The notes under the pieces: model-generated
Databases searched by the model: none
Told to the model about the DNA's origin: nothing
What the model saw: the letters and a program-made list of their open reading frames with translations, nothing else
NCBI GenBank assembly: GCA_964016885.1
Contig: OZ024740.1
Span: 252,588,001 to 252,652,000 of the forward strand
Length of the DNA stretch: 64,000 nucleotides
DNA from: Eledone cirrhosa
Lineage: Eukaryota
Direction: 5' to 3'
Part shown: piece by piece, positions 6,070-62,020 of the stretch
Layout: every line of letters starts with the position of its first letter
Numbering within the stretch: the stretch's first letter is position 1
Made by a program: the position numbers and the translations under genes

Positions 6070-6655
6070 TACATACAGGTACACATACATATATGTACGC
6101 ATCAGTTTAGCGGACGCTTATTATAGCGCCCGCTTTGTTCGTTTGTAAACAAACTGAACAGCCTGAATTTATGCCGCACGGTGTTAAGGCAACCACGTCA
6201 CCTTTTTGTTCAACACTGACACAGGAACGATGTACTAGTTTCAAGCTTGTTAGCTATCATCAGCAGTATACCCATCTGCCAGATAGTTGAATGTTCGAAA
6301 GTATATACTTTCCTTATGAAAATTAACGGCTGAGCAGCCTAATTTGCATATCGAGTGAGTTAAATCGGTCAGGCGCACCGAAAACGATGAGTTGTAATAA
6401 AATGAAAACGAAATTTCATTTCTCACTCTTAGTATGGCACTTACTTAAATGTAAGTATGTATGTATACGTACATACATATATGTATACAGACGTACAGTA
6501 GCATGCATATATATATATATATATACATATATACACCGTGCGGCATAAATTCAGGCTGTTCAGTTTGTTTACAAACGAACAAAGCGGGCGCTATAATAAG
6601 CGTCCGCTAAACTGATGCGTACATATATGTATGTGTACCTGTATGTATATATGTA
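5960..6655 (-). mobile_element. Dispersed copy (~1.15 units plus inverted arm 6535-6655) of the 501-bp hammerhead repeat
   Basis: Aligns by eye to the 52667-54900 units; hammerhead core at 6226-6270 has a weakened stem I. Confidence 0.85.
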
Positions 6656-8271: not shown

Positions 8272-8818
8272 TTGGCGGTACTCAGTAACAGAGAAGACCA
8301 GCCTTACCTAAATACATAGTAAAACCTACTACATCCAGTAGGCATCTCTAACAAAATACCCCCCCCCCCCCGTCCCATCCACACCACCCCCGTTCTATGT
8401 AAAGTTATGTTGGTGCCACACCATCCAGGCCGAAACAAATGAGATCGTGTAGGTGTCACGACAAAAAAAAAAAAAAACACACAGTCCACGCTGTAATGTG
8501 GCCGTGTAGGCAACACGGTAAAAACCTCCCAGACCCACACTGTAAATGTGGTTGGTGTTAGGAAGGGCATCCAGCTGTAGAAAACCTGCCAGACAGTCCA
8601 CGCTGTAATATGGCCGTGTAGGCAACACGGTAAAAACCTCCCAGACCCACACTGTAAATGTGGTTGGTGTTAGGAAGGGCATCCAACTGTGGAAAACCTG
8701 CCAGACAGTCCTATGCGAGCAAGACAATCACTCTTGCCTCAAGTGGGACTACCCCCGTCCAAACCCATGCAAGCGTGGAACACGGACGTTAAACGTTGAT
8801 GATGATGATGATGATGAT
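8272..8818 (+). mobile_element. RTE family 1, 3' end with two 112-bp UTR repeats
   Basis: TTTGGCGGTACTCAG...CACGGACGTTAAACG(TGA)n. Confidence 0.92.
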
Positions 8819-14505: not shown

Positions 14506-19198
<4,693 letters not shown>

Positions 19199-24112: not shown

Positions 24113-25454
24113 GTAAAGTTCTAGTTTGTAGGAAAGAAAATAAGGCGGCGGTCCCTTCTGGGAAATGGTCATGCTCAGTGTGTAGGAAAGGCGTAGGTAG
24201 AAACTCCATTTTATGTCCCAAATGCAAAGTATGGGTGCATAAAAGATGTAGTGGGATCACAGGTAAGCTAACTAAGAACATAGATTTTTACATGTGGCCG
24301 GTGCTCTGATGCAATAAGTAGCAGCAAGTGCCCACAAAATACTAGCTCATTCAATTGCGCAGAGGGTTCTATAGAAATAGTGGACAGCTTCCGTTACCTG
24401 GGCGACAAAATCAGCAGTGGGGGAGGGTGCTCTGAAAGTACAGTAGCTAGAGTCAGAACTGGTTGGAAAAAGTTCAGAGAGCTTATACCACTATTAGCTG
24501 CTAAAGGGTTCTCCCTAAAAATGAAAGGCAGGTTGTATGATGCCTGCATACGAACAGCAATGTTGCATGGCAGTGAGACCTGGGCATTGTGTTCAGAGGA
24601 TTTACGCAGACTAGAGAGGAACGAAGCTTGCATGCTCCGCTGGATGTGTAACAGTAATATACGTGAATGGCAAAGCATAACCGAACTAAGGAAAAAATTA
24701 GAAATAAGAGGGATCAGATGTTGTTTACTCGAGAGACGGCTACGTTGGTATGGACACGTGATGCGCATGAAAGACGACAGCTGTATAACAAAGTGCAGGG
24801 CAATAAAGATAGACGGTAGCCACGGAGTAGGCAGACCCAGAAAAACATGGGACGAGCTGATAAATTCCGACCTCACACCTCTCCAAGACAATGTCACTGG
24901 ACCAAGACCTTTGGCGGTACTCAGTAATAGAGAAGACCTGCCTTACCTAAATACAAAGTAAAAACCTACTACAGTCAGTAGGCATCTCTATCAAAACACA
25001 CCCCCGTCCCACCACCTCCACCCCATCCACACCGCCCCTTTCAATATAAAGTTATGTTGGTCCCACAACATCCAGGCCGAAACAAATGAGATCGTGTAGG
25101 TGTCACGACAAAAAAACACACAGTCCACGCTGTAAATGTGGCCGTGTAGGCAACACGGTAAAAACCTCCCAGCCCCACACTGTAAATGTGGTTGGTGTTA
25201 GGAAGGGCATCCAGCTGTAGAAAACCCGCCAGACAGTCCACGCTGTAATGTGGCCGTGTAGGCAACACGGTAAAAACCTCCCAGCCCCACACTGTAAATG
25301 TGGTTGGTGTTAGGAAGGGCATCCAACTGTAGAAAACCCGCCAGACAGTCCTATGCGAGCAAGACAACCACTCTTGCCTCAAGTGGGAAAACCCCCGTCC
25401 AAACCCATGCAAGCGTGGAACACGAACGCTAAACCTGATGCTGATGATGATGAT
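24113..25454 (+). mobile_element. RTE family 1, 3' fragment
   Basis: PHD region, ORF 24380-24961, two UTR repeats, GAT tail. Confidence 0.94.
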
Positions 25455-32075: not shown

Positions 32076-32140
32076 TATTTTGTCTGATGAAGGCATACCA
32101 TAATATAATTTGGTATCCCTGAAATATGTATAATGAAATA
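32076..32140 (+). ncRNA. Minimal type I hammerhead ribozyme
   Basis: TATTTTGT-CTGATGA-AGG.ATACCA..TGGTAT.CCT-GAAA-TATGTA-TA-ATGAAATA. Confidence 0.88.
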
Positions 32141-41943: not shown

Positions 41944-42380
41944 TACATACAGGTACACATACATATATGCACGCATCAGTTTAGCGGACGCTTATTATAA
42001 CGCCGCTTTGTTTGTTTGTCAACAAACTGAACAGCCTGAATTTATGCCATACGGTGTTAAGGCAACCACGTCACCTTTTTGTTCAACACTGACACAGGAA
42101 TGATGTACTAGTTTCAAGCTTGTTAGCTATCATCAGCACCGTTTACCCATCTGCCAGATAGTTGAACGTTCGAAAGTATATACTTTCCTTATGAAAATTA
42201 ACGGCTGAGCAGCCTAATTTGCATATTGAGTGAGTTAAATCGGTCAGGCATACCGAAAACGATAAGTTGAAAAAAATGAAAACGAAATTTCATTTCTCAC
42301 TCTTAGTATGGCACTTACTTAAATGTAAGTATGTATGTATACGTACATACATATATGTATACAGACGTACAGTAGCATGC

Positions 42381-49488: not shown

Positions 49489-52209
<2,721 letters not shown>

Positions 52210-52493: not shown

Positions 52494-52667
<174 letters not shown>

Positions 52668-52715
52668 TATGTATGTATACGTACATACATATATGTATAC
52701 AGACGTACAGTAGCA

Positions 52716-52767
<52 letters not shown>

Positions 52768-52940
52768 TATACACATATGCATACAGGTACACATACATAT
52801 ATGCACGCATCAGTTTAGCCGGCGTTTATTATAACGCCGGCCGCTTTGTTCGTTTGTTTGTCAACAAAGCGAACAGCCTGAATTTATGCCATACGGTGTT
52901 AAGGCAACCACGTCACCTTTTTGTTCAACACTGACACAGG

Positions 52941-52985
52941 AACGATGTACTAGTTTCAAGCTTGTTAGCTATCATCAGCACCGTT
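52941..52985 (-). ncRNA. Minimal type I hammerhead ribozyme (representative unit)
   Basis: AACGGTG-CTGATGA-TAGC TAACAA GCTT-GAAA-CTAG-TA^CATCGTT; 7-bp stem I; palindromic ACTAGT stem III. Confidence 0.92.
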
Positions 52986-53013
52986 TACCCATCTGCCAGA
53001 TAGTTGAACGTTC

Positions 53014-53066
53014 GAAAGTATATACTTTCCTTATGAAAATTAACGGCTGAGCAGCCTAATTTGCAT
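53014..53066 (-). promoter_or_regulatory. Candidate snRNA-type promoter in each unit: octamer ATGCAAAT (53059-53066) and TATATA (53019-53024)
   Basis: Motifs lie directly upstream of the hammerhead on the same strand and are conserved in all six hammerhead-bearing units; function is inferred. Confidence 0.4.
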
Positions 53067-53220
53067 ATTGAGTGAGTTAAATCGGTCAGGCATACCGAAA
53101 ACGATAAGTTGAAAAAAAATGAAAACGAAATTTCATTTCTCACTCTTAGTATGGCACTTACTTAAATGTAAGTATGTATGTATACGTACATACATATATG
53201 TATACAGACGTACAGTAGCA

Positions 53221-53268
<48 letters not shown>

Positions 53269-53721
53269 TATACACATATGCATACAGGTACACATACATA
53301 TATGCACGCATCAGTTTAGCCGGCGTTTATTATAACGCCGGCCGCTTTGTTCGTTTGTTTGTCAACAAAGCGAACAGCCTGAATTTATGCCATACGGTGT
53401 TAAGGCAACCACGTCACCTTTTTGTTCAACACTGACACAGGAACGATGTACTAGTTTCAAGCTTGTTAGCTATCATCAGCACCGTTTACCCATCTGCCAG
53501 ATAGTTGAACGTTCGAAAGTATATACTTTCCTTATGAAAATTAACGGCTGAGCAGCCTAATTTGCATATTGAGTGAGTTAAATCGGTCAGGCATACCGAA
53601 AACGATAAGTTGAAAAAAAATGAAAACGAAATTTCATTTCTCACTCTTAGTATGGCACTTACTTAAATGTAAGTATGTATGTATACGTACATACATATAT
53701 GTATACAGACGTACAGTAGCA

Positions 53722-53769
<48 letters not shown>

Positions 53770-54222
53770 TATACACATATGCATACAGGTACACATACAT
53801 ATATGCACGCATCAGTTTAGCCGGCGTTTATTATAACGCCGGCCGCTTTGTTCGTTTGTTTGTCAACAAAGCGAACAGCCTGAATTTATGCCATACGGTG
53901 TTAAGGCAACCACGTCACCTTTTTGTTCAACACTGACACAGGAACGATGTACTAGTTTCAAGCTTGTTAGCTATCATCAGCACCGTTTACCCATCTGCCA
54001 GATAGTTGAACGTTCGAAAGTATATACTTTCCTTATGAAAATTAACGGCTGAGCAGCCTAATTTGCATATTGAGTGAGTTAAATCGGTCAGGCATACCGA
54101 AAACGATAAGTTGAAAAAAAATGAAAACGAAATTTCATTTCTGACTCTTAGTATGGCACTTACTTAAATGTAAGTATGTATGTATACGTACATACATATA
54201 TGTATACAGACGTACAGTAGCA

Positions 54223-54270
<48 letters not shown>

Positions 54271-54717
54271 TATACACATATGCATACAGGTACACATACA
54301 TATATGCACGCATCAGCGGCGTTTATTATAACGCCGGCCGCTTTGTTCGTTTGTTTGTCAACAAAGCGAACAGCCTGAATTTATGCCATACGGTGTTAAG
54401 GCAACCACGTCACCTTTTTGTTCAACACTGACACAGGAACGATGTACTAGTTTCAAGCTTGTTAGCTATCATCAGCACCGTTTACCCATCTGCCAGATAG
54501 TTGAACGTTCGAAAGTATATACTTTCCTTATGAAAATTAACGGCTGAGCAGCCTAATTTGCATATTGAGTGAGTTAAATCGGTCAGGCATACCGAAAACG
54601 ATAAGTTGAAAAAAAATGAAAACGAAATTTCATTTCTCACTCTTAGTATGGCACTTACTTAAATGTAAGTATGTATGTATACGTACATACATATATGTAT
54701 ACAGACGTACAGTAGCA

Positions 54718-54757
<40 letters not shown>

Positions 54758-54958
54758 TATACACATATGCATACAGGTACACATACATATATGCACGCAT
54801 CAGTTTAGCCGGCGTTTATTATAACGCCGGCCGCTTTGTTCGTTTGTTTGTCAACAAAGCGAACAGCCTGAATTTATGCCATACGGTGTTAAGGCAACCA
54901 CGTTATAATAAACGCCGGCTAAACTGATGCGTGCATATATGTATGTGTACCTGTATGC

Positions 54959-54996
<38 letters not shown>

Positions 54997-55137
54997 TATA
55001 TATATATGCATGCTACTGTACGTCTGTATACATATATGTATGTACGTATACATACATACTTACATTTAAGTAAGTGCCATACTAAGAGTGAGAAATGAAA
55101 TTTCGTTTTCATTTTTTTTCAACCTATATATATATAT

Positions 55138-55779: not shown

Positions 55780-56595
55780 GAATAGAGGGTGTTAAAGTTT
55801 GCTTGAAGCATTGTGAAATGTGTAAAATATGTAGTTTAGAAAGCCACAACAATGCAGATGGGAAATCTCGAGGTAAGAAGTGAGTGAGAAATAGGAGAAA
55901 AGTGAAAATGAAAACAAAACAAAGGTAGAAGGGTTACCGTAGGGGAGATTTAATCCCAATATTTCGGGCTCACACCCATCAACGGGGGAAAAGTTCCAAA
56001 AGGGGGGGGAACAGGCTAAGCCGGAGAAAGTTGTATTGTCGTTAAAACTTAAGAATGCCGTTATGGGGAAAATTCAAATGAGGGAAAGAATGCGCGTGCG
56101 CGTGATAGGCTCTGGCAAAAGCTACTGACCAATTGGGTTAAATCAATAGGGTGCGCTAGCGTGTGGAAGCCGTAAAATATGTGTGTGTAAATATATGTGT
56201 GTGTGTAACTGTGTGTGTATATGTGTATGTATGTGAGTGTGTGTGTGTGTGAAAGATAGGGGGCCGTAGAAGCTGGAAAACAAAGAGTGAGAAAGGTGGT
56301 AGGTTGTATAAACATGTGTGCGCGTATAAATATAGATGTTTGTGTGTATGTGTATGGGTATACATATAAGTGTGTGTGTGTGAAGGATAGTAGGCCGTAG
56401 GGGCTGTTACTAGTCAATATGGTTAAATTAGCCATGTCAGCTCATTTCTCTCAGCCCGGTTGTTAAGTGGGGGTCTGAGGTTCTTAATAACAAGTGCTTC
56501 CTTTATCCTTAAGGATCCGATGCTGCGTTCAGTCGCTAGGACTGTGACCAAGGGTCTGCCCTGTGGGTTTCCGCATTTAAGGATGTGTTTACGGT
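55780..56595 (-). mobile_element. PLE 3' fragment (GIY-YIG C-terminus plus UTR), a further family
   Basis: RKHILKC...[20 protein letters not shown] ending at 56423; possible decayed hammerhead at 55955-55987. Confidence 0.7.
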
Positions 56596-59823: not shown

Positions 59824-62020
59824 TCGATCCAATAGAGGGACCAGCAGTGTTAGTTGAAGGTAGTATAATAAGTAAGGCAATCAAAGATATGAAGACGGGT
59901 AAGGCGGCTGGGCCTTCGGAAATAGTTGCTGAGATGCTGAAGGCATCTGGTTCGGTGGGACACAACATGGTCACCCGGATAGTTAACCAAGTCGTACAGA
60001 ATGGGGTTGTTCCGAAGGAATGGCGTAGCAGCATCATCGTTAACTGCTATAAGGGAAAAGGAGATGCCCTAGATAGGAGTAACTATAGAGGCATTAAATT
60101 AATCGACCAGGTCATGAAGGTCACGGAAAAAGTAATAGCGCAACTAATCAGAGAGAGAATTGATCTAGATGAAATGCAGTTCGGGTTTGTGTCAGGCAAA
60201 AGTACCACAGACGCTCTTTTCATTGTACGACAACTACAGGAGAAGTACCTAGCTAAAAGTAAATCCCTATACTTAGCTTTCGTCGACTTGGAGAAAGCCT
60301 TCGACAGAGTCCCCCGTTCCATTATCTGGTGGTCTCTTAGAAAACTAGGTGTTGACGAATGGCTTGTGAGAGCTATACAAGCCATGTATAAAGAAACAGT
60401 CAGTAAGGTTAGAATTAACAACGAATATAGTGAAGAGTTTAGCGTAAAAGTTAGTGTCCATCAGGGCTCTGTTCTTAGCCCCCTACTATTTATTATTGCC
60501 CTTCAGGCTATAACAGAGGAGTTCAAGACCGGCTGCCCATGGGAACTCCTATACGCAGATGATCTAACGCTCATAGCTGAATCAATGACCGAACTAGAGA
60601 AGAAATTCCAAACATGGAAGCACGGCCTAGAATCAAAAGGCCTTAAAATTAACCTGCTAAGACTAAAGTTCTAGTTTGTAGGAAAGAAAATAAGGCGGCG
60701 GTCCCATCTGGGAAATGGCCATGCTCAGTGTGTAGGAAAGGCGTAGGTAGAAACTCCATTTTATGTCCCAAATGCAAAGTATGGGTGCATAAAAGATGTA
60801 GTGGGATCACAGGTAAGCTAACTAAGAACATAGATTTTACATGTGGCCGGTGCTCTGGTGCAATAAGTAGCAGCAAGTGCCCACAAAATACTAGCTCCTT
60901 CAACTGCGCAGAGGGTTCTATAGAAATAGTGGACAGCTTCCGTTATCTGGGTGACAAAATCAGCAGTGGGGGAGGGTGCTCTGAAAGTACAGTAGCTAGA
61001 GTCAGAACTGGATGGAAAAAGTTCAGAGAGCTTATACCACTATTAGCCGCTAGAGGGTTCTCCCTAAAAATGAAAGGCAGGTTATACGATGCCTGCATAC
61101 GAACAGCAATGCTGCATGGCAGTGAGACCTGGGCATTGTGTGCAGAGGATATACGCAGACTAGAGAGGAACGAAGCTTGCATGCTCCGCTGGATGTGCAA
61201 TAGTAATATACGTGAACGGCAAAGCATAAACGAACTAAGGAAAAAATTAGAAATAAGAGGGATCAGATGTTGTTTACTCGAGAGAAGGCTACGTTGGTAC
61301 GGTCACGTGATGCGCATGAAAGACGACAGCTGTATAACATAGTGCAGGGCAATAAAGATAGACGGTAGCCACGGAGTAGGCAGACCCAGAAAAACATGGG
61401 ACGAGCTGATAAATTCCGACCTCACACGCTTACACCTCTCCAAGACAATGTCACTGGACCGAGACCTTTGGCGGTAGTCAGTAATAGAGAAGACCCGCCT
61501 TACCTAAATACAAAGTAAAAACCTACTACAGTCAGTAGGCATCTCTATCAAAACACACCCCCGTCCCACCACCTCCACCCCACCCACACCGCCCCTTTCA
61601 ATGTAAAGTTATGTTGGTCCCACAACATCCAGGCCGAAACAAATGAGATCGTGTAGGTGTCACGACAAAAAACACACAGTCCACGCTGTAAATGTGGCCG
61701 TGTAGGCAACACGGTAAAAACCTCCCAGCCCCACACTGTAAATGTGGTTGGTGTTAGGAAGGGCATCCAGCTGTAGAAAACCCGCCAGACAGTCCACGCT
61801 GTAATGTGGCCGTGTAGGCAACACGGTAAAAACCTCCCAGCCCCACACTGTAAATGTGGTTGGTGTTAGGAAGGGCATCCAACTGTAGAAAACCCGCCAG
61901 ACAGTCCTATGCGAGTAAGACAACCACTCTTGCCTCAAGTGGGAAAACCCCCGTCCAAACCCATGCAAGCGTGGAACACGGACGCTAAACCTGATGATGA
62001 TGATGATGATGATGATGATG
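59821..62020 (+). mobile_element. RTE family 1, 5'-truncated, with frameshift near 60655
   Basis: ORFs 59847-60674 and 60728-61342; two UTR repeats; long (GAT)n tail. Confidence 0.95.

Follow-up and report, generated by a model that had tools for sequence, protein, structure and literature searches.

The 64,000-nt stretch of Eledone cirrhosa DNA analysed here (contig OZ024740.1, forward-strand positions 252,588,001 to 252,652,000; hereafter the window, in whose own coordinates all features are given) carries on its minus strand a tandem array of a non-coding repeat, each unit of which combines a predicted hammerhead ribozyme with motifs resembling the promoter of a small nuclear RNA (snRNA) gene. 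We compared this repeat with its relatives in the 3.0-Gb genome and with the genome's own small-RNA genes. The array and the motifs of its last unit are laid out as follows, the predicted start being unit position +1.

52667..54903, minus strand: 5'-truncated main arm of the insertion, with ~4.5 units of 495-501 bp in tandem
54901..55124, plus strand: inverted partial unit on the 5' side (Penelope-type inverted arm), stopping 5 nt past the T8 run, on (TA)n
53112..53125, minus strand: T4+T8 run of the preceding unit, the right arm of a hairpin, adjoining the main insertion end; found again at 53626, 54127 and 54622
53056..53067, minus strand: host U6-type upstream box TATGCAAATTAG, octamer included; further copies at 53568, 54069 and 54564
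53066-53059, minus strand: octamer, part of the 12-base box
53050-53038, minus strand: 13-mer TCAGCCGTTAATT, called PSE-like (proximal sequence element) in the initial annotation
53047..53050, minus strand: TCAG, 26 nt before TATA, at the YCAG position of host U1/U2/U4/U5/U12; weak matrix score
53014..53029, minus strand: 16-bp palindrome enclosing the TATA box (TATATA at 53024-53019)
52994, minus strand: transcription start predicted from host spacing, at a C|A step 30 nt downstream of the first TATA base
52941..52985, minus strand: minimal type I hammerhead, with stem I (7/7 pairs), core at 52978, stem II and a palindromic stem III, ACTAGT
between 52948 and 52947, minus strand: predicted cut site, a GUA site

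The array is flanked on both sides by (TA)n tracts. Its last unit, to which the motifs at 52985-53130 belong, stops at about 52667, where the main arm is joined at its 3' end to (TA)n at unit position ~328, and does not reach its own T-run. The predicted start lies nine bases ahead of the ribozyme, and a T4 at 53039-53036, between box and TATA, is upstream of it. The family represented in the window, family A, has about 15,500 dispersed, non-coding copies genome-wide, with a full tandem unit of 501 bp. It shows two fixed 3' ends, scattered 5' ends, an inverted arm and (TA)n junctions, which together are the signature of Penelope-type mobilisation, and the unit is almost certainly a retrozyme of the kind without long terminal repeats (non-LTR).

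The hammerhead core, stems I-III and the GUA site are present in all four units, and across related families stems I and II vary in sequence yet keep their pairing through compensatory changes. Genome-wide, the core pattern gave 23,739 matches (family A plus family B) against 9 in the control, while Rfam returned no match at its cut-off in the window (HH9 reached only 18.5 bits, E 0.13). The predicted unit-length circle folds at -182 kcal/mol against -109 (standard deviation 4.6) for 30 shuffles, a difference to which the TA tract contributes part, and both box and TATA lie within its hairpins. The active shape was not obtained when the ribozyme alone was folded as a monomer (z -1.2), in line with the dependence of a minimal hammerhead on a partner, and this fold was not used as evidence.

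Promoters of the host small-RNA genes and the probable promoter of the unit

In U6, the best copy of U6atac, MRP and tRNA-Sec, a 12-base box at -77 to -80 is followed by a TATA box at -31/-32, with a spacing of 45-47 nt. Seven of the eight type-3 promoters have this box, RNase P being the exception. The standard layout was seen at 22 of 30 U6 loci and the box at both full-score tRNA-Sec loci among the ten fetched. Two U6 loci (L044, L045) show no upstream conservation and no box, and 7 of the 8 U6atac copies fetched also lack it; we tentatively read these boxless copies as processed copies. Six copies in the U6 array on C19 (L037, L038, L040-L043) have box and TATA separated by an insert of about 150 nt.

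The U1, U2 and U5 genes (13 promoter types) instead have AATTA at -88 to -91 and YCAGT at -55 to -58, and in most of them a TATA-like run lies near -30. No octamer was found within 300 nt in any of the 13, and the box is absent from all of them as well as from U12, U3 (four of six loci looked at) and U4 (three of six). YCAG at -55 to -58 occurs in 13/13 U1/U2/U5 promoters, in U12 and in the 3/3 U4 promoters shown, and in none of the seven box-bearing host genes; the U12 locus and three U4 loci had been held out and fit the pattern, two of them reading CCAGC. The TATA-like run at -30 is a feature of most of the polymerase II snRNA genes (U1, U2, U4, U5 and U12; L061-L115, L366, L374-L378), a departure from the vertebrate rule. 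Because such a run occurs in both host classes, it is the upstream elements and not the TATA that separate them. U3 genes (L367-L372) follow a third layout, with neither the box nor the U1/U2 spacing. The 130 nt upstream of the RNase P gene (L373), which had been held out as a type-3 gene, contain no type-3 box and a TCAGTG like that of the U1/U2 class, and the gene ends in T10; it possibly has a polymerase II or dual promoter. At ten single-looking loci with box and TATA, an Rfam search for further host genes returned only microsatellite noise, and several of these loci are decayed repeat families.

In the alignment to host U6 and U1 upstream regions called for by the initial annotation, the box of the unit is identical to the type-3 box at 12 of 12 bases. 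It reaches the maximum score on a matrix built from seven host promoters, a score matched by 1 of 10,000 dinucleotide shuffles, and the combined score of box and TATA was matched by none of 10,000; the antisense strand gives 9 bits against 19.6 for the strand of the box. The octamer, the 13-mer and the palindrome with TATATA lie on the minus strand where they had first been placed, and stem I of the hammerhead follows 34 nt after TATATA. The reading of the whole 13-mer as a PSE is rejected: against 20 host promoters it has no whole counterpart (best 7-9 of 13, at scattered positions), and only its first four bases, TCAG, do match. A host-type 3' box was sought in the unit and is not present (best -3.6 bits), on a matrix that gives 3.8-22.6 bits to 12 of 13 host genes, each left out in turn, with three aligned out of register. 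The exact host box, the TATA, the start predicted at 52994 and the retention of these motifs across diverged families point to an snRNA-type promoter inside each unit, as first proposed, and judged from its sequence this promoter is probably a working one.

Retention of the motifs across hammerhead-repeat families

Seven consensuses were compared. The ribozyme pattern yielded family A together with an older subfamily, and the 466-bp family B; box patterns yielded families D, E, G and H (the consensus of E rests on 3 copies), in each of which a hammerhead, or what is left of one, follows the TATA. Every one of the 21 pairs shares 11-12 of the 12 box positions, while the flanks of distant pairs align at 44-63%, the level of noise; between A and B the box is 12/12 and the surroundings 62%. 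The sole variable position of the box is T or G, and it likewise varies among the host genes. The partner with which the box pairs is found on its downstream side in A and B but on its upstream side in D, and since it differs between families, it is the sequence of the box rather than its fold that has been kept.

A YCAS motif stands 26-27 nt before the TATA in all seven consensuses (chance 0.6-3.6% each) and in none of the seven box-bearing host genes. Tested as the polymerase II-type YCAG at -55 to -58, it matches in position in 7/7 consensuses, with a weak matrix score (3.5 vs 9.5-15.2). In family D the box is 5 nt farther off, giving the U6 spacing of 46, and the distance from TCAG to TATA is unchanged. 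A pyrimidine-purine step follows 30 nt after the TATA in five of the seven. We regard the YCAS position across families, as read from these consensuses, as a lead with support, not proof.

Copies were also sampled without use of the box, against the bias built into families found by it. Among 30 copies of family D chosen by the ribozyme alone, the box scored at least 14 bits in 13 and at least 9.7 in 16, most of the others being without the upstream part. In 644 kb sampled irrespective of the box (window included), 9 of 29 hammerhead matches had a box, the share outside the window being 4 of 21; of the 10 boxes, 9 preceded a hammerhead core. Box and YCAS together gave 30,059 matches genome-wide against 4 in the control, or about 30,000 copies.

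Two further copies of family A lie in the window:

41946..42297, minus strand: separate copy with box, TATA and hammerhead, 96% identical
6072..6423, minus strand: separate older copy, 93% identical, T-run broken

Family D (L166-L194, L231-L260) is old and about 345 bp long, with exact U6 geometry, a T|G start and a T6 15 nt past the cut site; the sequence on either side of this T6 is similar to that flanking the T-run of A, the two runs occupying different positions in their units. At L175 and L355 the box is followed by unrelated sequence with no hammerhead core, which may be a further repeat type or a rearranged copy. Hammerheads without the box, of at least five kinds by stem III, occur in the window at 32084 and 42901 (plus strand) and ~33877 (minus strand), and elsewhere at L319, L339, L355, L312, L329, L321, L333 and L360. 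Among the other repeats of the window, the array flank at 51500-52030 was inspected by eye and resembles what we take to be the 3' end of a CR1/L2-type LINE (long interspersed nuclear element) frame. A 112-bp tandem unit in 2-3 copies at 8481-8711, 18474-18817, 25120-25351 and 61676-61907 is presumably a dispersed repeat of the SINE (short interspersed nuclear element) type.

The T-run, the insertion ends and the choice of polymerase

Along a complete unit of 501 bp, no T4 occurs downstream of the predicted start before unit position 371, and the last base of the T8 is at 384. This bears out the stretch of ~360 nt without a T4 described in the initial annotation, except that the run at 53112..53125 is that of the preceding unit. 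The run is not conserved as a terminator ending a functional RNA. Among the first 100 listed of 12,466 read-on sites, 29 have T6 or longer and 71 have the run broken (no T5 or longer); the read-on pattern itself demands a later T4, so a weak terminator remains compatible with these counts. The fetched loci hold 114 T-run sites: at 89 the repeat goes on into the promoter, at 25 it stops a few bases past the run, and at none does it stop inside (a tally recounted by eye, in which three ends listed by script were moved to the continuing sites). Genome-wide, 1,973 intact runs continue, 834 are followed by an insertion end on (TA)n, and no more than 56 matches stop inside the run or at it; DNA recombination of tandem arrays may inflate the read-on counts, not the end positions. 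A second site of insertion ends lies near unit position 330, so that the ends fall at ~330 and ~390, about 60 nt apart, with 5' ends scattered. Copies also span the ribozyme cut, as 14,862 of 15,565 post-cut sequences (95%) are joined to the core.

Since the insertions extend over T-run, promoter and cut site alike, the RNA that was copied passed the T-run; a polymerase III stop at the T8 would leave an RNA of about 380 nt without a promoter. The 14,862 of 15,565 sequences that cross the cut likewise indicate that circles or uncut multimers, not linear cut monomers, are the usual template. The proposed carriage of the promoter into new copies thus stands in that the RNA spans the promoter, and the freeing of linear monomers by cutting, which was part of the same proposal, is unseen in the insertion ends. 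The proposal of a U6-type cassette ending at the oligo-T is not supported, since the long run is not kept, the insertions end beyond it and the spacing of box and TATA is 4-6 nt short.

We lean slightly towards a hybrid-promoter retrozyme unit with a promoter of its own, from which polymerase II would read through the T-run. Transcription would start near 52994 from the unit's own snRNA-type promoter and, with no 3' box and no effective terminator, the transcript would enter the next unit. Paired hammerheads would then cut at unit length, giving a monomer with the next unit's promoter at its 3' end, which could be circularised, or multimers could stay uncut. A Penelope-type reverse transcriptase may start internally, at unit positions ~330 and ~390, and copy round the template, and the resulting DNA would be joined to (TA)n tracts. 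If so, a promoter that in a normal snRNA gene lies outside the transcript becomes inherited, because the RNA copy spans it. Polymerase II is somewhat favoured overall as the maker of the copied RNA because the YCAS position, the read-through and the newt precedent discussed below all fit it. Human type-3 promoters are reported to recruit polymerase II too (PMC6023835), and in insects small differences within the upstream element are reported to decide the polymerase (PMC1761439).

The same promoter could be real and served by polymerase III, with most transcripts stopping at the T-run and rare read-through supplying an RNA of unit length for copying. In favour of this, the box marks host type-3 genes specifically, family D matches the U6 geometry exactly, with a spacing of 46, a T|G start and a T6 shortly behind the hammerhead, every consensus retains T-rich runs, and schistosome hammerhead repeats are reported as polymerase III transcripts (PMC6765202). 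Yet T6 or longer is reported to stop polymerase III fully in human cells (PMC5725217) and the youngest copies, whose runs are T7-T8, have proliferated; 71 of the 100 listed copies have the long run broken, insertions do not end within it, a terminated RNA would be without the promoter, and six of the seven consensuses fall 4-6 nt short in spacing. We consider this account unlikely as a whole, although polymerase III with a leak is possible, above all for family D. It is less probable still that the motifs are kept for RNA folding or reverse-transcriptase binding, or are the dead relic of a captured promoter, with passive transcription from neighbouring genes. Such a role would agree with the hairpins that hold box and TATA in a strongly self-paired circle (-182 vs -109 kcal/mol), with the non-canonical spacing and with the lack of better conservation in young copies, but the box is fixed while its pairing partner changes, it varies only where host promoters do, and TATA, YCAS and start step are spaced as in a promoter in the seven consensuses. 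An ordinary satellite spread by DNA recombination, with incidental promoter and ribozyme matches, would account for tandem arrays, for cheap TATA matches in AT-rich sequence and for the lack of an Rfam match at cut-off; the shuffle test, the 23,739 cores against 9 in the control, the compensatory stems across families, the dispersed insertions, the fixed 3' ends and the inverted arms make it very improbable.

Several observations weigh against a hybrid promoter read by polymerase II. The spacing of box and TATA is 41, not the 45-47 of host type-3 genes, and the shortfall of 4-6 nt is half a turn and like no host gene seen. The initial annotation called the spacing more compact than in vertebrate U6. 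The octamer is no compacted distal enhancer, the host genes likewise having their box at -78. The TCAGCC of the unit scores 3.5 bits on the U1/U2/U5 matrix against 9.5-15.2 for host genes, and a different site in the unit outscores it. The AATTA element of that class (-88 to -91) is absent from the unit, whose best site (4.9 bits, one base off) is missing from the older subfamily. Families D, E, G and H were recovered with the box as query, so that its presence there is partly built in, and the YCAS pattern was noticed post hoc in families that share ancestry. Among the hammerhead matches in the 644 kb, 19 of 29 are other types without the box. A T4-T8 run stands ahead of the box in five of seven consensuses, D and E also having one after the start, and the T6 of family D, 78 nt after its start, fits polymerase III. 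Arrays may grow by recombination, and no excess of A-to-G changes was seen (10 vs 10 T-to-C). Finally, the conservation of the motifs beyond the rest of the unit, which the annotation had named as a test, holds across the seven diverged consensuses and fails among young copies: 108 alignments of young copies show the box no better preserved than the rest, with variation at 2 of its 12 sites and 0.010 differences per base against 0.007. These copies are too alike and are neutrally decaying, and the within-family test says little.

The mobilising enzyme presents a further difficulty. The 3' part of a Penelope-type element lies at 56423-56593 (minus strand), 1.3 kb from the array, and its full-length relatives (L326:1538-4198, L327:1560-4220) have an 887-residue frame of reverse transcriptase and GIY-YIG, 3.45-kb tandems and at least 150 near-identical matches. 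In the one full-length Penelope-type family checked, the ends matched neither box nor hammerhead and no partner family was identified, which also counts against the reading we favour. This result rules that family out as donor of the promoter, a role considered for the adjacent element. For the lizard Penelope enzyme, two internal start sites, AT-rich targets and the use of uncut RNA are described (PMC11167929), and for the Penelope class inverted arms, tails and a microsatellite bias (PMC8557442).

Relation to known elements and promoters

The transcription of animal retrozymes is unaddressed in the literature we searched, the newt and schistosome cases aside, and we found there no description of such a retrozyme promoter, of cephalopod hammerhead repeats or of cephalopod U6 promoters. 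In the available text of the two retrozyme papers, "promoter" is used only for T7 clones (PMC7229834) or not at all (10.64898/2026.07.22.740005); both supplements list retrozyme sequences, maybe cephalopod ones. By term counts of the available text, an octopus repeat annotation (PMC13282606) leaves ribozymes unmentioned. Direct reading against the host snRNA genes gives an exact predicted start, three mutable elements and a clear choice between polymerases, and the two promoter classes of the host small-RNA genes should be useful for guide-RNA expression. The unit also shows a route by which a gene-external promoter could be inherited via an RNA copy. A wider proposal, tentative and on balance doubtful, is that a protein-free circular-RNA clade built a chimeric promoter, joining a polymerase III-class box to a polymerase II snRNA core, which fires like an snRNA promoter and reads through terminators, and which no host gene has. 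If this is true, about 30,000 chimeric promoters would far outnumber the host snRNA promoters, could compete for factors and could seed small-RNA transcription genome-wide.

The unit resembles the metazoan non-LTR retrozymes reported from coral, mussel and axolotl (PMC7229834; 10.64898/2026.07.22.740005) in its non-coding tandems with one type I hammerhead each, its thousands of copies, low GC, self-paired predicted circle and accompanying Penelope-like elements, and differs in length, 500 bp against the 170-400 reported. With Penelope-like elements it shares partial tandems, an inverted 5'-truncated arm, two fixed 3' ends ~60 nt apart and (TA)n targets (PMC8557442, PMC11167929), but it has no reading frame. 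With host type-3 promoters it shares the 12-base box, the TATA and a start 30 nt after the TATA, and it departs from them in its spacing of 41 against 45-47, its extra YCAS at -56 and the lack of a terminator conserved across the family. Captured small-RNA promoters are described for other elements too, where they are of the internal type (PMC10886601).

Schistosome Sm-alpha hammerhead repeats are similar in that the promoter is part of the unit and falls at the cut monomer's 3' end, which makes tandem copies necessary; they are reported as polymerase III transcribed and SINE-like, whereas the elements of our unit are of the gene-external snRNA type (PMC6765202). A precedent is newt satellite 2, for which transcription by polymerase II from a promoter of the snRNA type is reported (Coats, Zhang and Epstein 1994; Cremisi 1992; as cited in PMC2220036 and PMC6765202). 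It too is a hammerhead tandem repeat with a palindromic short stem III and an internal snRNA-type promoter. The Eledone unit differs in belonging to another phylum, in having its box from the host polymerase III class together with a TATA and an element at the polymerase II position, and in showing its promoter in several diverged families. The retrozyme class and the internal snRNA-type promoter of newt satellite 2 are thus already known; the present comparison adds a direct contrast of the two host promoter classes, the placement of YCAS in the seven consensuses, and counts that speak against the T-run as terminator.
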